A stretch of 10,941 nt of DNA from NCBI GenBank assembly GCA_018238545.1, contig JABCTC010000072.1, positions 1-10,941 of the forward strand. Direction: 5' to 3'. Source of the DNA: Candidatus Heimdallarchaeota archaeon. Its GTDB lineage: Archaea > Asgardarchaeota > Heimdallarchaeia > Heimdallarchaeales > Heimdallarchaeaceae. Positions within the stretch are counted from its first letter, which is position 1; each line of letters opens with the position of its first letter. The translations under genes were made by a program, and so were the position numbers. This document shows positions 1,913-10,941 of this stretch, piece by piece. The notes under the pieces were generated by a model, which made no database searches, was not told the origin of the DNA, and saw only the letters and a program-made list of their open reading frames with translations.

Positions 1913-3505
1913 TTACTGTCTTACCCCCCGCTCTTTTTCAAGTAATGGCTGTGCTGATTCGGACTGTTTTTGAACTTTATCTTTTGGGTGAACTTGGGGA
2001 GTTTTTTGCGGAGAGGAAGAGAGGGTAAGACGTGAAAGCATTTTCAACCCCTCTGAGAGCGTCATAAACGGATTGTCCGTCCTATCCGAGCCTACAGGTA
2101 AATTGCGTTTTTCACTAATGTATCCTGAATCGAAAATTTGCACGAGATTCCTAGTTAAATCATAGTACAATACGAAAGTTTCGAATCCGTTTTGAGAAAA
2201 AACGTAAGTGGTTTTGTAATGATTTTCCCAAGAATAACTGTTCATTCCTTCACCAACTTTGAGATTAATAATGGTGTTTTCTCCTAAAAGTAGATCATCT
2301 TCATAGATTTTATTGTCTATTGTATGTCTAGGTTTATGAGAATGAGGAATGTCTAAGTCCACACAAGCGTTAAGAACAAATTGCTCAAAAAGTTCTTCTC
2401 CTCGTTTAGCACTAATGTAACCAAAAACAGAAGAATTTTTATCTTTGATCAGATTTCTACGCATATCGAAAACTTTCGTTCTGCCACAAGATAATTTTTT
2501 CCATGTTTCAGGGGAAGCAGGAGGTTCATCCTCTATAACTAAAATCTTCCAGAACTCAGCGTATTTGTCATATTTAGGGTGAATCAACAATTCTTCATAG
2601 ATTTTTTCTTCCCAGTCAAAAACATCTATTTTTGTCCAGTTATGATCTATTGTCGGAATGCCTTCACCTTCGCCTCTTCTCAGAAATTCTACATCCCACA
2701 GATCTGTCTTATCGACAACAGGATTATACCATAACCCTATTTTCTTTGTTGATTCTACCTTATATGTTCCATAACCAAAATAGTGCCCATATTTTTTCAT
2801 GGCTTCGGAAACTTGGTAGACTCTTTTTTTAGATTTAACTAGTGTTCTTTTCTCACTACATTCGTTAAGAAACTTAGCTCCTTTATAAGAGACTAGCTTG
2901 CTAATTTGATGAGTGGAGTCATAGACATTCGCTTCAGTAGGAACGCTTTTGACAATGATTAGGTCGATATCATCTCTGAAAAGTTCAGGAATGGAAAAAT
3001 ATCTGTGAACACCTAAAACTTGAATTAATATCCCTTCATTTAGTCCAGTTTTGTTTTTACAGATCCATCTACGCTTTTTGATATTTACTTTAATATCTTT
3101 ATACTGTTTAGTGAGAGCAGAAGTAACATCTTCAGCACATAAAAGGATATATTTTTTGTTTCTAGGAATTTTCTGGTAGAGAGCTTCTAACTCGGTAGAA
3201 GTTACTTCAGTGAAACTTTCTTCTGTAGGAAAGATATCTTTAAAGAAATCGCAAATAAAATCTATGGTTTCACTTTTTCCAGATTCTTCAGCCCCTACAA
3301 CTAAAATGTAGGTTATGGACCATTGATTTTTTTCTTTAACGGTTGTTTTAGCTTTCTTTTTTAGATAACGAATATAGGCAGGTTTGGGAAAAAGCTCATC
3401 TAAAACTTTGTAAGCTTGTCTTAATCCTTCGTCTTGATCTGGATCATCAAAAGGATTTTTTTGAAATACAATTGTTTTAGGTGGATCATAATCTCCCCAG
3501 CTCAG
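1913..3505 (-). CDS. ~530-aa P-loop ATPase (FtsK-HerA/A32-like packaging-type) with putative HTH and C-terminal PD-(D/E)XK-like nuclease domain; probable CTG start
   Basis: The track ORF 1913..2800 stays open upstream for 236 more codons, to 3508. The extension has Walker A ILVVGAEESGKS (3272-3295), a Walker B-like YILLCAED (3128-3151), and VLGVHRYFSIPELFRDDIDLIIV, which resembles the A32/HerA hhhxQ...P..hR...dhhh motif with His for Gln. The C-terminal half has RGEELFEQFV...EDDLLL...INLKVG. CTG at 3503-3505 lies 7 nt after GGGGGT. Confidence 0.8.
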   Translation of the reverse strand: MSWGDYDPPKTIVFQKNPFDDPDQDEGLRQAYKVLDELFPKPAYIRYLKKKAKTTVKEKNQWSITYILVVGAEESGKSETIDFICDFFKDIFPTEESFTEVTSTELEALYQKIPRNKKYILLCAEDVTSALTKQYKDIKVNIKKRRWICKNKTGLNEGILIQVLGVHRYFSIPELFRDDIDLIIVKSVPTEANVYDSTHQISKLVSYKGAKFLNECSEKRTLVKSKKRVYQVSEAMKKYGHYFGYGTYKVESTKKIGLWYNPVVDKTDLWDVEFLRRGEGEGIPTIDHNWTKIDVFDWEEKIYEELLIHPKYDKYAEFWKILVIEDEPPASPETWKKLSCGRTKVFDMRRNLIKDKNSSVFGYISAKRGEELFEQFVLNACVDLDIPHSHKPRHTIDNKIYEDDLLLGENTIINLKVGEGMNSYSWENHYKTTYVFSQNGFETFVLYYDLTRNLVQIFDSGYISEKRNLPVGSDRTDNPFMTLSEGLKMLSRLTLSSSPQKTPQVHPKDKVQKQSESAQPLLEKERGVRQ

Positions 3506-3508
3506 TAG

Positions 3509-4414
3509 TTAAACCCCCTTTTGTTCGAGTAGTTTTGCGAGTTGGCGTTTTCCTATCTTTTTGCCTAGCTCCTTCTCTTCTCGCTCAATTTCCTCTTTAA
3601 CCTCAAGCAGAACAGTTAAGTCTGCTTTTGCTTCAGCTATTCTTTTATTAAGATTAAGATTAAGCATCTGGTTACAGCCTTTCTGCATCGAGGAAAGCTC
3701 GTTTTTGGATTGAATTAGATCCTCTTTGTCTTGTAGTTGTCGTAGTTTCATAATAGCATATTCTTCATTTGATTCATCGAAATACTCTTTAGTTTCTTTT
3801 CTAATTTCTGAAATATGTTCTTTTATTTCGTCTTTTGCTTCATTCAATTTTCCTATCACCTTTCGTTTTTTTTCATAATTTATTGCTCTTTGAAGAATCT
3901 GTAAGTAGATTTTCAAAGTCATTAAAGCTAATGGACTAGCATCAGCTTCTTCTGGATCTAAAAGATAACCTTCCTTATATTCTTCCTTTTCAGGATTAAG
4001 AACCATATCAACAGCTAGAGCAGCAAGTCTATTTTCCCAAGAATCCAATTTGATTTTAGAAAGCGGAATGGGAGTGATAGCAGGTTGTTTTTGTGCGCTA
4101 TAACTAGCTTTCTCGATCTTAAGAGCAGAACTCATAAGGTATTCTGCATTTTCTTGCCCTTTCTGAGAAAAGTGTTTTATACCTTCTCTGTAAGTATATT
4201 TGTTATTACAGCGGAAAGCTCCTGCAACGAAGTAGATAATGTGCTTCTGATCTTTGAGGAAATTAACTTCAGCATAATAATCCCAAAATTCTAAAGCTAG
4301 TTGGATAGAAGCAAAATTATTAGGCCCCATGTGGAGAGCAGCACCGTACATGTGGTGAATAAAACTCATCCAGTTAGTAGCGTCTAAAGTTTCAGTTCTC
4401 TTCCTCGCTGACAT
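3509..4414 (-). CDS. Hypothetical protein, 301 aa, with a C-terminal E/K-rich coiled coil
   Basis: ORF track. The C-terminal ~130 aa are heptad-like and highly charged (KLNEAKDEIKEHISEIRKETKEY...EVKEEIEREEKEL). It overlaps the upstream gene by 23 nt. Confidence 0.85.
   Translation of the reverse strand: MSARKRTETLDATNWMSFIHHMYGAALHMGPNNFASIQLALEFWDYYAEVNFLKDQKHIIYFVAGAFRCNNKYTYREGIKHFSQKGQENAEYLMSSALKIEKASYSAQKQPAITPIPLSKIKLDSWENRLAALAVDMVLNPEKEEYKEGYLLDPEEADASPLALMTLKIYLQILQRAINYEKKRKVIGKLNEAKDEIKEHISEIRKETKEYFDESNEEYAIMKLRQLQDKEDLIQSKNELSSMQKGCNQMLNLNLNKRIAEAKADLTVLLEVKEEIEREEKELGKKIGKRQLAKLLEQKGV
3513..3518 (-). promoter_or_regulatory. Putative Shine-Dalgarno (GGGGGT) for the CTG-initiated ATPase gene
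   Basis: The minus strand reads AAGGGGGT-TTAACTA-CTG, a 7-nt spacer. Similar GAGG(T) motifs precede the starts at 6046 and 5399. Confidence 0.5.
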
Positions 4415-5399
4415 AATACATCATCACTGCGTCTAGTTCTTCTTTTGATTTAGCTTGACTTAATTCTTTCAATAGACTCTTTTGTCCTTCAATTTCTACT
4501 ACACCATCATAAGGTTCAGTCTTCTTGTCTGTAACCCTCTTAATTCGCAAAAATTCTTCGCCTTTGTGAGGTAGAGCAACGTCTAATACCATTTCTAGTC
4601 TTTCGATAACAACGTTTCTGAGTTGATATTTAGCTTGTAATAATTGCTGTTTAATATCGGCTGTACCTAGAATAGTTTCATAAATAACGTTTTTTTCCAC
4701 TTCTTGTTGTGTAGGAGGTAAACCTTTAATGATCATGGTATAATAATCTCTAATAGGTTCAGTGACAAGAATAGCTTGGTTAAGAAAACATTTTTTGGTT
4801 TCTATATCTGTGATATATAAAGAATCATTTCTCCATGAAAGAGGAACGATATCCAATTCTAAGAAATCTTTGTCTTCTTTACCTTTTTCTTTGAAAACTC
4901 TTTCAGAACCATTTTCTTTAAAATATTGAACAGTTACTTTGTCTAGATAAATGGGTTTATTGCCAAAGAATCTTTTCTCATGCAAAAGATATCCATCGGA
5001 GGTTGTAGTAACTTTGAAAAAGTAAGTATGTTTAGAACCTAGTTCTCGAAAACCTACTTTATCAACATGAATAAAATATTTGATAATGAGGTAGATCAAT
5101 GGAGCAAAGAGCAAAGCTAATCCAGCTCTTGAAACAACAAACCAAATGGCGAGAAAAACCCATTTAAGAACCCAATAAAGCAAAATAAAAATACCTACAA
5201 AGCCAAAGCCCCAGTGCATTTTCATAACAAATATAACAAATGGAAAACCTATAATAAAAAAGAAAATTATAGAGATAATTGTTCCCCAAAACAGTTTAGC
5301 ATGTCTTACAAGTAATTCGTATTTGTATCGTTGCCAAATACTACGAGTAGGAGTGTCTTCTCGCTCTAATTTTATGTTCATCTGTTGTGGATCACTCAT
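4392..5399 (-). CDS. Membrane protein, 335 aa, about 3 N-terminal TM helices and a soluble C-terminal domain
   Basis: Hydrophobic stretches LFWGTIISIIFFFIIGFPFVIFVM, WGFGFVGIFILLYWVLKWVFLAIWFVV and AGLALLFAPLIYLII. ATGA coupling to the upstream gene with a GAGG SD. Confidence 0.85.
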   Translation of the reverse strand: MSDPQQMNIKLEREDTPTRSIWQRYKYELLVRHAKLFWGTIISIIFFFIIGFPFVIFVMKMHWGFGFVGIFILLYWVLKWVFLAIWFVVSRAGLALLFAPLIYLIIKYFIHVDKVGFRELGSKHTYFFKVTTTSDGYLLHEKRFFGNKPIYLDKVTVQYFKENGSERVFKEKGKEDKDFLELDIVPLSWRNDSLYITDIETKKCFLNQAILVTEPIRDYYTMIIKGLPPTQQEVEKNVIYETILGTADIKQQLLQAKYQLRNVVIERLEMVLDVALPHKGEEFLRIKRVTDKKTEPYDGVVEIEGQKSLLKELSQAKSKEELDAVMMYYVSEEEN

Positions 5400-6046
5400 T
5401 TTTGGTCCTCTTTGATTTTGCTTTTAATGAAATGTTTTACGCCCGTACCTTCTCGCTGAATAACTATCACGCCAGTAAAAATTATCATAAAAGGAATGGT
5501 CACTAAGTAACTTAAATTGGTATATAGAATCTCTTGTTTGTGTTTCTCTTCACTCATAGATTCTTCGTCTTCATCACCAGGAGGTCGCCACCAAGACGAT
5601 TCGTCATAAGTATACAGAAGAGATAATTGTGCATAAATTACTTCTCCAGAGAGATCTGTTACAGATGCAGTCCAAATCAAGTGCTCCTTATCCATGTGAG
5701 GACGGACAGTCCATCTCCTTTCTTTTGCTCCTATACCATTTTCGTTATCAATTTCAAGAAACATATCTTCGTCACTATCAAATATACGCAACCTGAAGTT
5801 TCGCTCTGCATCCATGCAAATTACTACGACTGTGATATACATGTAATCTGAACCAGAATTATTAACACCAGTAGTAGTTACAGTTAAAGCACCTGATAAG
5901 TCATCAAATCTTTCAACGTAAGTATACAAACCTGGGGAATCGACTCCTATTCCTTCTTCAGTGGATAAGGCACTTGCTGTTGAACTAAAACAGATAAGAA
6001 ATAGTAATGGGACCACAATTAAGAATAATTTCTTTTTCTTTTTCAC
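5396..6046 (-). CDS. Secreted, C-terminally membrane-anchored protein, 216 aa
   Basis: Class I signal peptide MKKKKKLFLIVVPLLFLICFSSTASA, a beta-rich ectodomain, an acidic linker (PPGDEDEESMSEE), a TM helix (LSYLVTIPFMIIFTGVIVI) and a basic tail. The GTG start overlaps the TGA of the upstream gene, with GAGGT upstream. Confidence 0.85.
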   Translation of the reverse strand: MKKKKKLFLIVVPLLFLICFSSTASALSTEEGIGVDSPGLYTYVERFDDLSGALTVTTTGVNNSGSDYMYITVVVICMDAERNFRLRIFDSDEDMFLEIDNENGIGAKERRWTVRPHMDKEHLIWTASVTDLSGEVIYAQLSLLYTYDESSWWRPPGDEDEESMSEEKHKQEILYTNLSYLVTIPFMIIFTGVIVIQREGTGVKHFIKSKIKEDQK

Positions 6047-9000
6047 TTGTTTAACCTCTCTTTCTTTTTAACGTTTTTATTAACAATATATATAGCAACT
6101 AAAATAATAATGAGTGCAATAGCTGACATACCAGCTATGAATGCTGGTTTTGTCCACCATTTATCTATCACTTCTTCTTCTTCAGGTTCAAAAACCAAAT
6201 CTAATGGTATTACAATCACGTAAGGAACTGTTCTAAGTTCTGGATAATCTGTTATATCATCATATAATTCAACCATAGCACCATTTTCATCATAAGTTGT
6301 TGAACCAACAGAAAGGATTCTAATCTCATAAGTGCGATTACAAACCCAATATTCTGTCTGATAACCAGGAGGGAGTATGGGTGTTGTTTGCCACTCTTCG
6401 CCACTCAAATAAGACCGTATAGAGATTTTATGACTTTCATCATCGTTATTCACTACACCTAAACGATAAACTGGAAGTTCAATAATAGCATAAGCAAAAC
6501 TTGAAATATCTATTGTTAGATTATACATTATTTCTCTACCGAATAAATCTGTGATAGTTAAATTATGGATCGGCATGTTGTTTCTGATTCTTATATAATC
6601 ATTTGCGATAAAAGTATAATTTGAGTAGTCTGGAACATCGTCAATTTCTCCATCAAAAATCAACTTTCCATTAAAATAAGTATTAACCCATGAAACTTCA
6701 AACGCATCTCCAATGGCTAATCCAAGATAATTAGTTGGAACATATCTTATTCGAATATCATAGAACAATTTTGTCTCATACCAAAATTCGTAAGAGATTG
6801 TTGCATTATATTCAGCAATAGGATACCCTTCGCTATCTGTAGAGATATTATAACTGTATATTAATGTGATATTATGTAATCCGACTTTAGATGCCTTAGG
6901 AATTGAATAGCGTGTCTCTGTGCTGTCATCAATGATTAATACACTATCATGCCAGACATCAACCCAGAAGAACGCTAAATTAGTGTAGAGGCTGATATTA
7001 TAGAAGCCCTGACTGTCGGTTCTATAAAGGTCATTTGAAGGGTGTAATGGAGGAATAAGGTTGCTATACCAGGTCATAAAAGTGATATTTTCAGAACCGT
7101 AAGTAAAGACTATAGTAAAGTTGTATAATCCTGCTGCTCTGCTCTTTGGTGAGATAATAATTGTTCCAACAGCCATTCCCGATCCACTACCAATATCTAG
7201 GTCATTTTGATATACAATGTAGGTATAATCAAAATTAGCTGTAGCGTAAATATTCAAATAATCATCAGAAACATAGAAAGATTCAACATAGACACTAAAG
7301 GCAATAGGAGGATAAACAGAATAACTAAAGCTGTGAATAATGTCATCATATCCAGCAGCAGAAAAGATAAGTGTAACATAATGATTACCGACTGTGGTAT
7401 TTTTAACCCAAGTCGTTGTACTCTCTGGATCACTATCTTCGATCAACATTCCATCTTCATAAATAGTGAGAGAATCTAAAGCTGGAAGAGTTGTATCCCA
7501 AGTAATAGTGATAGTTGAACCATCAGTAACTCTGTAATCTGTCAAGTAGAAAGGTGTTCTTGGATTGCTGTAAGTAGTGTTAAACCATATTTCTGTGGAT
7601 TCATAAACAAATTTGATAGCATAAGCAATCGTTATCCCTGCGGTAATATTTTTATTTGTTTCAATGACCGTTCCAGAACCATAAAGAGTTCCAGTTTCAA
7701 TTTCAACATTATCTTCATAAACATAGTAAGAACCATCATAGTTTGCTGTAGCGTAAGTATTCACATAATTATCTGAAACTTGAAAACTACCTATGTCGAC
7801 TTGAAAATCTGCAACAGCATAAATATGATAATTGAAAGAATAAGCTACGGTTGTATAACCATCTGCTTCAAACAATAACGTCACAGAATGAGTTCCAACA
7901 ACAGTAGATTTTGTCCAATCAGAAGGACTAGTTGTGTCTTCATTAACAGTAGTAAGTGCTCCATCCTCATAAACAGTTAGTTTGTCGCTATCAGTCAAAG
8001 AAGTAGCCCAAGTAACTGTTATTGTTGTATCGCCGATATTTACAGAATAAGAAGTAACAAAGAAAACTCCTTCAGTGTTACTATAAGTAGTGTTAAACCA
8101 GATTGTGTCTTCAGCAGCATTCCAGAATTTTATGGCATAGTTGATGAAAGCTCCTTCGGTTGTATCACGATCTGTTTGAATAGATGTGCCAACACTGAAA
8201 AAAGGTGTGGGAGAGTCTGAAGGGATAGCTGTGTTATTCTCATAAACTTGATAATTACCATTCTCACTAGCTGTGATATAGGTGTTGACATATAATTCAC
8301 TCAAATGAAAAGATTCAATGTTGATCTCAAAGATAGCTGAAACAATCTCATAATTAAAAGAATAAATTATATCTTGAAAACCAGCAGCTGAAAAAATCAA
8401 AGTAACGTAATGCACTCCAACAGTAGAAGATTTAGTCCAAGATGAAGGACTGGTTGTATCTGCATTAACTGTAGTAAGTGAACCATCCTCATAAACAGTG
8501 AGAGAATCAATAGTGCTTTTAGAAGTACTCCAGATTATTTCGACATTCTCTTCTCCAATTTCAACAGTATAAGATGAAACGTAAAAAGCAGAGACAGGGT
8601 TATTGTATCTCGTGGTGAATGTAACTGTTTCAGAACCGTAAGTGAATTCTAAGGTTAAGGTTACTTCTGAACCAGGAGTGGTGATTCTTGTTACACTGAT
8701 CGTTGTTCCTTCCTTATCAATATTACCACTACCAGAACCACCTGCAGTTATTTCGTAAGAACAATCATAATTACTCGTGACAAATAAATTAGCATAATCA
8801 TCACTCAAATAGAAATTCTCGACAGAAACACTGAAAGCAGCAGAATCAACAGTGTAGAGATATTCATAAGTAGAACTAAGATAAGCTCTTTCTTCTCCTG
8901 CGCTGAAAAGAACATAAGTAAGATTGTGATTTCCAACAGTGTTATTCTTTAGAATTGTTTCAAGATCCTGATAAACACCTAAATAATTGGAATCAGAATA

Positions 9001-9819
9001 AATTTCATATTGATAGGTGTTGTTTTCGCTTGAAAGATAGAAAGTTGTATCAGTTTCGTATAACTCAGGATCTTCAACGTGAACAAGTCTGATATACTCA
9101 ATATCAATTTTAGTTCCTACTACAAATGTGGTTGTGGAATTAGAAAAAAGGATTTGAAAATCTGTTTCTGTTCCAGTCCATGATGCAGAAGTTATTTCCA
9201 CACAAAATTCATACCATTTGTCAGCTAGAAATCCTCCATCACCATAACCACAATCATCCCAACCATTAACATCTACGACCGTATTTCCCCAATGTCCATC
9301 ATAGAGATATATTTCTCCTAGTGCTGTGTCTGTTCTACAAATAGTTACATTTGTTCTAAATCTCATCGCAAAATGGGTATAATAAGAAGTATCTACTGAA
9401 GCAGTTGAACTATAATCTGTGTAAATATATACTGTTGCAATACCTGTTTTTGCAACAAAAGAATAAATCCCATTTTCATGCGTTTCTGATCCAACATCAC
9501 CACATGTTGAATCCCAATCGTCAGTGTCCCCTTCAGTCCAATCCCAAGCGTCTAATTCAAAGATTTCAGCGTAATCTGTTTCGGTGGGAACAGAGGGAGT
9601 GAAATAAAAACTACAATTATTAAATTCTCCTGAAGAATAACTGTAAGTCCAGATTTCATATTCTTTTTGTTCTAAAGTGCCTCTAAAAGTTGTTTGAATT
9701 ATTCCGTTGCTATCAGTTGTTAAAGAGGTAACATCGGGATAAAGTGTCGATAAAGCTTTTGAATGTGCCAGCGCAGTTGCTTCTGTCCAAAATTTTGAAA
9801 GAAAACGGTTGCTTTTTTG
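6043..9819 (-). CDS. Very large acidic surface glycoprotein / adhesin / spike-like protein with Ig-like repeats and a C-terminal TM anchor; 5'-truncated
   Basis: The track start at 9366 is internal. The frame is open to 9819 and reads in the same style up to about 9720 (TTDSNGIIQTTFRG...ELDAWDWTEGDTDDWD). No signal peptide or start is visible, so the true N-terminus is missing. The protein is T/S/Y/D/E-rich with about 20 N-X-S/T sequons. It ends in PAFIAGMSAIALIIILVAIYIV followed by NKNVKKKERLNK. Confidence 0.85.
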   Translation of the reverse strand, partial: QKSNRFLSKFWTEATALAHSKALSTLYPDVTSLTTDSNGIIQTTFRGTLEQKEYEIWTYSYSSGEFNNCSFYFTPSVPTETDYAEIFELDAWDWTEGDTDDWDSTCGDVGSETHENGIYSFVAKTGIATVYIYTDYSSTASVDTSYYTHFAMRFRTNVTICRTDTALGEIYLYDGHWGNTVVDVNGWDDCGYGDGGFLADKWYEFCVEITSASWTGTETDFQILFSNSTTTFVVGTKIDIEYIRLVHVEDPELYETDTTFYLSSENNTYQYEIYSDSNYLGVYQDLETILKNNTVGNHNLTYVLFSAGEERAYLSSTYEYLYTVDSAAFSVSVENFYLSDDYANLFVTSNYDCSYEITAGGSGSGNIDKEGTTISVTRITTPGSEVTLTLEFTYGSETVTFTTRYNNPVSAFYVSSYTVEIGEENVEIIWSTSKSTIDSLTVYEDGSLTTVNADTTSPSSWTKSSTVGVHYVTLIFSAAGFQDIIYSFNYEIVSAIFEINIESFHLSELYVNTYITASENGNYQVYENNTAIPSDSPTPFFSVGTSIQTDRDTTEGAFINYAIKFWNAAEDTIWFNTTYSNTEGVFFVTSYSVNIGDTTITVTWATSLTDSDKLTVYEDGALTTVNEDTTSPSDWTKSTVVGTHSVTLLFEADGYTTVAYSFNYHIYAVADFQVDIGSFQVSDNYVNTYATANYDGSYYVYEDNVEIETGTLYGSGTVIETNKNITAGITIAYAIKFVYESTEIWFNTTYSNPRTPFYLTDYRVTDGSTITITWDTTLPALDSLTIYEDGMLIEDSDPESTTTWVKNTTVGNHYVTLIFSAAGYDDIIHSFSYSVYPPIAFSVYVESFYVSDDYLNIYATANFDYTYIVYQNDLDIGSGSGMAVGTIIISPKSRAAGLYNFTIVFTYGSENITFMTWYSNLIPPLHPSNDLYRTDSQGFYNISLYTNLAFFWVDVWHDSVLIIDDSTETRYSIPKASKVGLHNITLIYSYNISTDSEGYPIAEYNATISYEFWYETKLFYDIRIRYVPTNYLGLAIGDAFEVSWVNTYFNGKLIFDGEIDDVPDYSNYTFIANDYIRIRNNMPIHNLTITDLFGREIMYNLTIDISSFAYAIIELPVYRLGVVNNDDESHKISIRSYLSGEEWQTTPILPPGYQTEYWVCNRTYEIRILSVGSTTYDENGAMVELYDDITDYPELRTVPYVIVIPLDLVFEPEEEEVIDKWWTKPAFIAGMSAIALIIILVAIYIVNKNVKKKERLNK
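7057..8841 (-). repeat. Intragenic tandem repeat: alternating A and B domains of ~85 aa each, arranged A-B-A-B-A-B-A (period ~170-174 aa)
   Basis: A units begin FSVSVENFYLSDDY, FEINIESFHLSELY, FQVDIGSFQVSDNY and FSVYVESFYVSDDY. B units contain LTVYEDG...WTKS..VG.H.VTL.F.A.G. A DNA-level near-repeat GAAGGACT...CCATCCTCATAAACAGT occurs at 7922 and 8444, 522 nt apart. Confidence 0.9.
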
Positions 9820-9851
9820 TTAGGAATTTCACCTTCAATAACCAATATTTC
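9774..9851 (-). other. Short fragment resembling the C-terminal Tudor-like domain of PcrA/UvrD helicase (Bacteroidota type)
   Basis: EILVIEGEIPNKKATVFFQNFGQKQL resembles the PcrA/UvrD tail pattern V..IEG...NKKATIFF...GQKQLLLKFAKL, but breaks off before LLKFAKL. Recognised from memory. Confidence 0.55.
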
Positions 9852-9986
9852 GTACCCTTGCAGCACTCTTATTACATCCCGTTTATATTTTGGCCTCTTC
9901 TTAACGCCCCGTATACCTCTAAAACCTTCCCGGCGAACCTCTTCTTTACTCTTAGGTTCTGCGCTATCACAGATTATTTTATCATC
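9837..9986 (-). other. Internal fragment of a PBSX-family phage terminase large subunit (RNase H-like C-terminal domain)
   Basis: IICDSAEPKSKEEVRREGFRGIRGVKKRPKYKRDVIRVLQGYEILV matches the typical TerL segment I.aDSAEPKSI.El...G....ga.K.......I..LQ.Y.I.V. Only about 50 aa are present. Confidence 0.7.
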
Positions 9987-10310
9987 TAATTCAACTGCAT
10001 AAAATTTATCGCTAGCAATTGAAATTTCATAAACTCCATTCAAATTCTGAACTGACGAAGATGTATAAGTTCCACTATCCGATTCTCCTGTTGTTTCATT
10101 TATATAACTATAAGTATTATTATCCTCGTCTATTTGGTAAGTAATAACATCTCCATAACTACCAGAAGCTAAATAATTATTCTTATTTTCTACTGTTTGA
10201 TTGTTGTTATTGTTGTCATCTTCAAGCGTTGTATCATCTTCATCTTTTCCACAAGCTCCGATTAACACTGCAATGACCATTAATAAAGTCATTAATTTTA
10301 AATAATTTGT
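9972..10310 (-). other. N-terminal fragment of a bacterial (Bacteroidota-style) lipoprotein
   Basis: TNYLKLMTLLMVIAVLIGAC-GKDEDDTT: a hydrophobic core, a lipobox Cys at 10251-10253 and an acidic KDEDD export-signal-like stretch, followed by an N/T/S-rich beta region. Composition switches abruptly to basic sequence after ELDDKII. Confidence 0.65.
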
Positions 10311-10329
10311 CTGCCACAATCACATCCCC

Positions 10330-10722
10330 TTAAAATTTCTGAGCCCCAGGCTCTACTTTTAATAAATCACTACCAAATTTAGCATCATACACATTTTTAA
10401 CTATCACTTCAAAATACATTAATATCGGCCTACCTAATGACACTGAATCATTAATATAAAGAACTAAAGACCCTAACTTATTCGTATCCTCTGAAGTAAG
10501 AGTTAAGTAATACAAACCCGCACAACCTGGAATATCAGCCCAGACATGCGTTCCAATGTTAACTATAGTTTCATCCGCCTTTACGATATACTTCCAATAA
10601 TACCAACTAAGCTGGGCCCCAGATATTGGATTAAGAGGATCGGTAAGTTTTGTTTGTCTGGTAAGAAGCACTCCAACTCGAATCTTTTGTTGTGTTTCGT
10701 GCCTTATTTGATAGCTAAACAT
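10330..10722 (-). CDS. Hypothetical phage-like protein, 130 aa (beta-rich, possibly virion-associated)
   Basis: Complete ORF starting 1 nt after the GIY-YIG stop. GLYYLTLTSEDTNKLGSL...FEVIVKNVYDAKFG recalls a domain common in uncharacterised tailed-phage proteins (from memory, unverified). Confidence 0.7.
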   Translation of the reverse strand: MFSYQIRHETQQKIRVGVLLTRQTKLTDPLNPISGAQLSWYYWKYIVKADETIVNIGTHVWADIPGCAGLYYLTLTSEDTNKLGSLVLYINDSVSLGRPILMYFEVIVKNVYDAKFGSDLLKVEPGAQKF

Positions 10723-10723
10723 A

Positions 10724-10941
10724 TTATGGTATCCGAATTGCCCCTTGCTCCCTCAAGTAATCTATCTTATCACATCTCTTTTGTTGCTTTACTTTATACT
10801 CTAACTTAAGAGCATCACTTCTTGACATAGCACCGCTTACCCGCACCAATCGCACAGGCAAACGTGAACGAGTATACTTGGCCCCTCGCCCCCTATTATG
10901 GATTATCAGTCTCTTATCGAGATTATTAGTTACTCCACAAT
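10724..10941 (-). CDS. GIY-YIG nuclease, UPF0213/YhbQ-like, 5' end outside the window
   Basis: Not in the ORF track. Translation: CGVTNNLDKRLIIHNRGRGAKYTRSRLPVRLVRVSGAMSRSDALKLEYKVKQQKRCDKIDYLREQGAIRIP*. It carries the G.TN.L..R...HN.G.GAKYTR.R.PV.LV and A.K.E..hK family motifs. Confidence 0.9.
   Translation of the reverse strand, partial: CGVTNNLDKRLIIHNRGRGAKYTRSRLPVRLVRVSGAMSRSDALKLEYKVKQQKRCDKIDYLREQGAIRIP

Follow-up and report, generated by a model that had tools for sequence, protein, structure and literature searches.

The stretch of archaeal DNA analyzed here (10,941 nucleotides, the window) carries on its minus strand a gene (1913 to 3505) for a 530-amino-acid protein in which an FtsK-HerA ATPase, a linker, a helix-turn-helix (HTH) domain, a PD-(D/E)XK nuclease and a low-complexity tail are joined in one chain, and the tail lies across an inverted repeat at the 3′ end of the gene. 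The three-domain fusion is genuine; its parts are of known kinds, and their combination appears to be new. We propose, with a probability of about one-half, that the protein binds and cuts its own site and then pumps the DNA out, as a terminase or a coupling protein-relaxase pair does, and the matching repeat at the end of the gene suggests a mode of genome cutting and export that has not been described before.

Reading frame and start codon

Translation of the minus strand from 3505 to 1913 yields 530 codons with no internal stop. The claim of an earlier note, made from the letters alone, that one uninterrupted frame holds three parts is borne out by this translation, by the fold of each part and by homologues of the same layout. 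All of the motifs it quoted are in place: Walker A at G71 to S78 (3272 to 3295), Walker B at L121 to D126, His167, an HTH-like segment at residues 332 to 352 (2450 to 2512) and the C-terminal residues E374, D403/D404 and N414-L-K416 (2250 to 2404). The first ATG, GTG or TTG codon of the frame is the Met codon at 2800, where the public gene call (P0004) begins; as had been predicted of standard gene calling, this 295-amino-acid product is truncated and has lost the ATPase part. Gene callers can thus lose an ATPase domain at a non-ATG start.

The junction at Met 2800 is spanned by eight aligned homologues, six of them complete (531 to 599 amino acids) and two partial. In the start region (3503 to 3518, minus strand), a CTG codon (3503 to 3505) aligns with the ATG of L001, L005, L012, L034 and L045. 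It lies 3 nt past an upstream stop (3509 to 3511), a spacing shared with L001, L005 and L012, and 8 nt downstream of a G-run resembling a ribosome-binding site (3514 to 3518). Other homologues start at TTG (L050) or GTG (L051). Between the window gene and that of L010, dN/dS is 0.12 for codons 22 to 235, indicating purifying selection upstream of Met 2800. Across all domains, dN/dS values range from 0.06 to 0.27. Because homologues align across Met 2800, their start Met matches CTG 3505, relatives use non-ATG starts and dN/dS is 0.12, the fusion is considered real. CTG 3505 is a putative start; alternatively, one base of the codon may be in error, or an ATG may have mutated recently.

Two other explanations were discarded. 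A gene split at Met 2800 is ruled out by the homologues aligned across the junction, which keep the fusion, and by dN/dS; readthrough from an in-frame upstream gene is unneeded, the junction frame being different in P0005 and L003. It is very improbable that the window allele is defective, through mutation of ATG to CTG or an assembly error, and makes only the 295-amino-acid HTH-nuclease. L012 has ATG where the window has this codon, a difference of one base, and the contig is also broken inside the adhesin gene, but 235 codons under this constraint contain no stop or frameshift, the G-run is normally spaced and relatives start at TTG or GTG; the conclusion for the family would, moreover, stay unchanged.

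ATPase domain

The ATPase domain (2690 to 3442, minus strand; residues 22 to 272) includes K77, E125-D126, R146 and His167. A search of 1.8 billion representative sequences found 63 relatives, and motif conservation was scored in an alignment of 56 sequences. FtsK-HerA ATPases usually have a Walker B motif of the form hhhhDE, an arginine finger before strand 4 and a Gln that ends this strand. In the 56 sequences, Walker A (GxxxxGK[ST], G71 to S78) has an invariant Lys (K77), and Walker B is hhhh[ED]D family-wide, with a nearly invariant D126; hhhhDE with its catalytic Glu is absent, and an Asp in Walker B may replace the usual catalytic Glu. R146, invariant within an RxRH motif, sits where the arginine finger is expected and is a putative one. 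The usual Gln at the end of strand 4 is replaced by His (His167) in at least 90% of the 56 ATPases and appears only in the branch of C67 and P0017. The catalytic motifs had been called atypical, and ED, His and NLK are indeed present, but they are family-wide and give no sign of decay.

When refolded from the 56 sequences, the domain was modeled with a pLDDT of 92.8 and matched (VIA) VirB4 (Z 12.0, rmsd 3.6, 180 aligned, residues 1 to 248) and STIV2 B204 (Z 11.8), followed by EccC (10.9), TcpA (10.5), HerA (10.3) and FtsK (10.2). The best AAA+ match scored 9.9, mostly over a shorter span, and the refolded model has the FtsK-HerA fold, including the C-terminal strands past the P-loop core. An AAA+/Orc assignment had come from the full-length model (pLDDT 69) and was outscored by FtsK-HerA once the domain was refolded (pLDDT 93). 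Among viral models (BFVD), the matches of the ATPase included Zot, A32-like ATPases and a protein from a Nitrosopumilus spindle-shaped virus; the best viral structural match was A0A2Z5WQ22 (E 7e-8, TM 0.67). The Pox_A32 profile (PF04665) did not match the query and matched 1 of 64 homologues, at 3e-5, and no gene for a double jelly-roll capsid protein, the companion expected of an A32 packaging ATPase, was recognized. Of the original label of an A32/HerA-like ATPase, membership of FtsK-HerA therefore stands by fold, whereas the specific link to A32 is not established. As modeled, the ATPase is a pump of the FtsK-HerA kind whose signature diverges, rather than a demonstrable A32 enzyme, and by analogy it is predicted to form a ring oligomer that translocates DNA.

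HTH and nuclease domains

The HTH-type helical domain (2444 to 2611, minus strand; residues ∼299 to 354) is defined by the model and by HTH profile matches of homologues. Its helices (residues 299 to 308, 313 to 324, 332 to 338 and 342 to 354) form a confidently modeled bundle with a pLDDT of ∼90. The homologous segments match HTH_28, Sigma70_r4 and Mor, and the family profile weakly matches the HTHs of Rex and NtrC, in support of the HTH-like segment first proposed.

The C-terminal part, previously described as restriction endonuclease-like, is a PD-(D/E)XK domain (2021 to 2431, minus strand; residues ∼359 to 495) containing E374, D403-D404 and N414-x-K416. It was modeled with a pLDDT of 80 to 93 and has the core alpha-beta fold of this group. 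Its matches (VIA, residues 368 to 496) were Hjc (2wcw, Z 8.9, rmsd 3.9, 118 aligned), PspGI (3bm3, Z 8.4) and Hje (1ob8, Z 8.1), with RecU among those in BFVD. None of the three outcomes that the earlier note had set against its own reading (no restriction-endonuclease fold, homologues split in two or an ATPase grouping with unrelated AAA+ or kinase families) was found.

The motif II Asp (D404) and motif III Lys (K416) are invariant in 31 homologues, among which motif III is NxK, ExK or SxK. The acidic residue of motif III is absent from the window protein (N414), and sister genes have the canonical ExK. In 16 of 18 NxK members, Asp or Glu directly precedes the motif II Asp, and the remaining two have a Glu on the next helix. 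Carboxylate migrations of the types EPD-XXK and PD-XXK-E are known in PD-(D/E)XK enzymes (PMC3424549), and the relocated acid of the NxK types, by its likeness to these, favors a live site with predicted activity. D403 is the candidate third carboxylate, with a geometry taken from the alignment, not from coordinates. Metal-dependent DNA cleavage is predicted for the modeled domain.

Exchange of the HTH-nuclease module

The ATPase-HTH-nuclease layout occurs in ∼30 homologues; their nucleases are of three types, and their ATPases do not all belong to one family. A sister gene with the canonical ExK lies on contig C67 of the same genome. Pairs of these proteins differ sharply between their two halves: identity is 80% in the ATPase and 9% in the module for P0005 and P0014, 78% and 8% for P0017 and C67, and 13% and 78% for P0017 and P0008. 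NxK proteins form a single clade in the nuclease tree (support of 100/100), but five changes would be needed on the ATPase tree, which rejects NxK monophyly (AU test, P = 2e-21; 22 proteins). Judged from these sequences, the HTH-nuclease module is exchanged repeatedly between ATPase lineages. Other relatives consist of the ATPase alone or of ATPase and HTH without nuclease. As many relatives are of these two kinds and lack nuclease and repeat, DNA export would be workable without the module.

Several arrangements depart from the single complete gene. Contig L001 carries two ATPase-HTH-nuclease genes of different types (4347 to 5945 and 7709 to 8679), the second being identical to the C67 gene (100%) over ∼190 ATPase residues and diverged from it in the HTH. 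L043 (G010:C32, 8701 to 9909) has a 5′-truncated ATPase-HTH-ExK gene with its repeat, flanked by apparently chromosomal, unrelated genes; this copy could be a remnant or a moved cassette. Longer versions (808 to 933 amino acids) in L036, L037, L039 and L040 have an extra N-terminal region (with a second P-loop-like motif in L037) and HTH-nuclease tails that have diverged; host-like genes adjoin those of L036, L039 and L040.

These patterns bear on a selfish origin of the module, in which a homing-type HTH-nuclease cassette would parasitize the 3′ end of the ATPase gene and cut rival elements at coinfection, the fusion being its route to expression and the repeat a scar or protected site. Repeated swapping between ATPases fits such a cassette, as do a lower dS in the nuclease (0.40) than in the ATPase (1.5) between the window and L010, the identical ATPase and diverged HTH of C67 and the second L001 gene, the truncated L043 copy with its repeat between unrelated genes and the existence of nuclease-free relatives. 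Nevertheless, we consider it rather unlikely: swaps join ATPases of <20% identity, where homing by homologous repair would hardly operate, the module was always found in frame behind an ATPase, and the repeat arms keep pairing with each other although the spacer between them is hypervariable, a constraint not expected of a scar.

Inverted repeat at the 3′ end of the gene

Of the two arms, the left one (2023 to 2031, minus strand; GTCTTACCC on the coding strand) has its pyrimidine tract inward, and the right one (1918 to 1926, plus strand) has a purine tract inward. The arms are 9 bp long, and the gene tail is translated across them. The spacer (1927 to 2022) has 96 nt and is hypervariable, with ∼45 to 230 nt in homologues. 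DNA homology between elements breaks off at the left arm and is found again from the right arm onward (for example, between window and L012, window and L047, and L005 and L043), the right arm being where homology with the downstream genes of other elements begins. Because homology ends at one arm and resumes at the other, the spacer is interpreted as a boundary of sequence exchange.

Three comparisons support the repeat. First, with a threshold of at least 9 of 10 matches, it was found at 12 of 15 nuclease-bearing loci and at 1 of 94 control gene ends, in a test that was designed after the motif had been seen and on loci that are interrelated. L001, one of the loci missed, has its own 15-nt repeat without the CCC anchor used by the test. 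Second, all six loci retrieved once the motif had been recognized (L016, L045, L046, L047, L050 and L051) have the repeat, which is found in none of three ATPase-HTH genes without nuclease. Third, arm sequences vary by locus and yet pair, with 82 of 91 outer positions Watson-Crick, compared to a mean of 42 and a maximum of 69 for permuted arms. The long Hodarchaeales-like versions L036, L037 and L039, from more distant genomes, have weak repeats (6 to 8 of 10). In folding energy, the stem of the window does not surpass shuffled sequences (z of about −0.8), and a strong RNA hairpin in the window is therefore unlikely; support for the repeat is comparative and does not come from the window's fold alone. 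Contigs L034 and L007 end at or just past the left arm, and these ends could be DNA ends or assembly breaks.

A swappable module together with a cis repeat, neither of them noticed in the earlier note, is the best evidence for a bind-cut-translocate enzyme, and it would also fit an origin or a homing role; joint inheritance of site and nuclease may be mere linkage. A replication initiator with its origin is an unlikely reading: the half-sites around the A-rich spacer would be the origin, bound by the HTH and nicked by the nuclease, with the ATPase acting as helicase or translocase and the Rep and origin swapped as a replicon cassette. The position of the site at the 3′ end of the gene recalls the hairpin origin downstream of rep in the SNJ2 pleolipovirus, and no other replication protein was recognized in the flanks of L045, L046, L050, L051 and C67. 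However, the ATPase comes last in a membrane-protein operon and has packaging and secretion motors as its structural neighbors, no covalent-Tyr domain (HUH or Rep_trans) was seen, and a separate Rep may lie outside the assemblies, the contigs being all partial.

It is improbable that the repeat is instead an HTH-bound operator or an RNA stem serving the downstream genes, with a nuclease that is inactive or a debrancher of the Hjc or D212 type that clears DNA for the pump. Holliday junction resolvases are the top fold matches of the nuclease, fuselloviruses encode a stand-alone PD-(D/E)XK protein (D212), and in the window and L012 the right arm overlaps both the stop codon and what is probably the ribosome-binding region of the following gene. 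In L010, L045, L047 and L016, by contrast, the right arm does not adjoin a start codon; the lack of a repeat in nuclease-less ATPase-HTH genes and the unexceptional energy of the window stem also argue against a role of this kind.

Gene context

Upstream of the fusion gene, the minus strand encodes a soluble protein of 301 amino acids (3509 to 4414) with a coiled-coil-like C-terminal half, conserved in this position (family F6); a 335-amino-acid membrane protein (4392 to 5399; family F2, also in C67 and C97) with two or three predicted transmembrane segments and a soluble domain, a candidate channel or anchor for the motor; a 216-amino-acid protein (5396 to 6046; family F4) with N-terminal signal-like and C-terminal transmembrane segments; and a large, C-terminally anchored adhesin-like protein (6043 to 9717), ∼520 N-terminal residues short of its 1,588-amino-acid homologue in L046. 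Downstream, also on the minus strand, a 52-amino-acid Zn-ribbon protein (1754 to 1912), found in L012 and L047 and absent from L010, starts 1 nt past the stop of the fusion gene. It is followed by a conserved protein cut by the contig end (2 to 1531), basic and multidomain, with a YgjP-like zinc metallopeptidase domain that occurs in several elements. Homology to the L046 adhesin begins at ∼9717; beyond it (9717 to 10941) lie a bacterial lipoprotein-like open reading frame (ORF), an ORF of 130 amino acids and a GIY-YIG fragment, and this region is probably a chimeric join or insertion.

The operon of adhesin, 216-, 335- and 301-amino-acid proteins and ATPase fusion is conserved in L001, L034, L035 and L045, and C67, L040, L046, L050 and L051 have a variant form. 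The fusion gene comes last in such a membrane-protein/adhesin operon in the window, C67, L001, L040, L045, L046, L050 and L051, and where context is visible, most of the ∼30 homologues close operons of this kind in virus-like elements of archaeal metagenome-assembled genomes (MAGs). L045 has a tyrosine integrase, L046 has a long run of tiny genes, including ASCH and antirepressor-like ones, and L040 is integrated, as it adjoins an arginyl-tRNA synthetase gene. The named relatives are in Heimdallarchaeia and Odinarchaeota MAGs, binning being no proof of host, and strong matches are patchy (12 of 399 genomes of the phylum).

The suggestion of a nontailed archaeal virus is upheld as to its setting, which is tailless and rich in membrane proteins, but not as to virus status, as no capsid protein was recognized. 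Two-helix membrane proteins of 60 to 100 amino acids in L046, C67 and C128 had no capsid family match, and a profile search of the window operon gave no portal or capsid family. The 40 flanking ORFs included no recognizable polymerase, HUH Rep or primase, and the window's own genome had no CRISPR spacer-like match to it. That genome (G000) contains at least two further related membrane-protein/adhesin modules (contigs C67, C97, C23 and C128), and an 80-amino-acid protein of C128, which matched no family, has the shape of an inovirus coat precursor. Directly after the sister gene on C67 (L008, G000:C67, 4503 to 7864) is a type IV-B Cas-like cluster with a CysH/PAPS-reductase gene, the PAPS-reductase family alone being profile confirmed.

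Comparison with known systems

Searching the query sequence against Pfam, PHROG and PDB produced no informative match, Rfam gave no match, and an ESM Atlas feature search with the C-terminal part gave scores under 0.9. No relatives were found in IMG/VR, in GTDB pattern scans or in phage or plasmid records, these scans being insensitive, and the literature searched, with incomplete coverage, held no description of an ATPase-HTH-nuclease fusion or its repeat.

The wyrdviruses, spindle-shaped viruses of Asgard archaea (bioRxiv 10.1101/2021.07.29.453957), similarly have an adhesin, a short block of unknown genes and a pI-like ATPase without transmembrane segments that is thought to extrude the genome, with small Zn-finger, HTH and ASCH genes nearby. 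They differ in having five conserved genes from adhesin to ATPase, compared to three in the window, C67, L001, L040, L045 and L046, and a His1-like capsid protein, which was not detected here, the corresponding region being missing from the window. For wyrdvirus ATPases, which were compared by description, that paper mentions neither a nuclease fusion nor a repeat (bioRxiv 10.1101/2021.07.29.453957). Pleolipoviruses (PMC3384331) and pT26-2 plasmids (PMC6972569) likewise have a conserved membrane-protein cluster closed by a P-loop NTPase, and the pT26-2 ATPase has the same two top structural matches, VirB4 and STIV2 B204 (PMC6972569). Their NTPases, unlike the present one, are not reported as nuclease fusions, and plasmid and phage collections gave no sequence match.

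Where a type IV coupling protein is paired with a MOB_C relaxase, TraX of pAD1 (PMC12857230), an HTH and a restriction-fold nuclease act on a cis site alongside an FtsK-HerA pump, but as separate proteins, with direct repeats at oriT and a type IV secretion system (T4SS). Neither the 31 modules nor the neighbor genes matched a Replic_Relax/MOB_C or T4SS family in Pfam, remote homology being possible. Archaeal proteins of the order AAA+ ATPase, HTH and RecB nuclease (arCOG03166, PMC4158269; COG1672/DUF234, PMC3424549) have the same succession of NTPase, HTH and PD-(D/E)XK; they contain AAA+ domains and occur in defense islands (PMC4158269, PMC3424549), whereas here an FtsK-HerA ATPase closes a membrane-protein operon with a repeat downstream. 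The PD-(D/E)XK fold itself is found in spindle-shaped viruses and archaea, as fusellovirus D212/D244 and archaeal Hjc/Hje, but in stand-alone proteins, unlike the present domain, which is part of a fusion, carries an NxK site and goes together with a repeat.

The large terminase of tailed viruses unites ATPase and nuclease in one chain, cuts at a genome signal and pumps DNA. Its likeness to the fusion protein, which could be assigned to neither the terminase nor the MOB_C relaxase family, is functional only: the terminase has an RNase H-fold nuclease and works with a portal and an HK97 head, whereas here the nuclease has a restriction fold and no portal or capsid was matched.

Proposed mechanism and implications

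We predict that the gene encodes a DNA export motor with its own recognition and cutting module, in a tailless, membrane-protein-rich mobile element of Heimdallarchaeia-like archaea that is most likely an enveloped, budding or extruded virus or, alternatively, an agent of cell-to-cell transfer. (i) The HTH domains would bind the two inverted half-sites present at the 3′ end of the gene. (ii) The PD-(D/E)XK domain, with E374, D404, K416 and the relocated D403, would cut in or beside the spacer; the NxK site without the canonical motif III acid is a counterpoint to this mechanism. (iii) With the membrane proteins encoded upstream as its docking site, the FtsK-HerA ring would drive the cut DNA through the membrane and into either a particle or a recipient, a role suggested, beyond the fold and gene context, by its analogues pI, B204 and VirB4/TcpA. 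Cutting would make the site recombinogenic, which may be why the HTH-nuclease and its site have been swapped between ATPase lineages. Somewhat more tentatively, at less than even odds, there may be undescribed enveloped viruses or DNA transfer elements of Asgard and related archaea in which a single polypeptide is both site-specific nuclease and export pump, its gene having the inverted-repeat cut site within the tail and its specificity module being swapped between lineages as a cassette.

The question addressed concerns extruded or budding archaeal viruses and elements of the pT26-2 kind, and how these select their DNA and deliver it to the export ATPase. The family brings together, within 1.6 kb and in natural cognate and noncognate combinations, an ATPase with candidates for its specificity module and cis site, and the mechanism is therefore testable with purified protein and short DNA though the hosts are uncultured. 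The family also marks an Asgard-associated group of elements that did not come up when viral, phage and plasmid collections were searched by sequence. If the proposal is true, a terminase equivalent would exist outside the tailed viruses, and particles of these elements would carry site-cut linear or nicked genomes.
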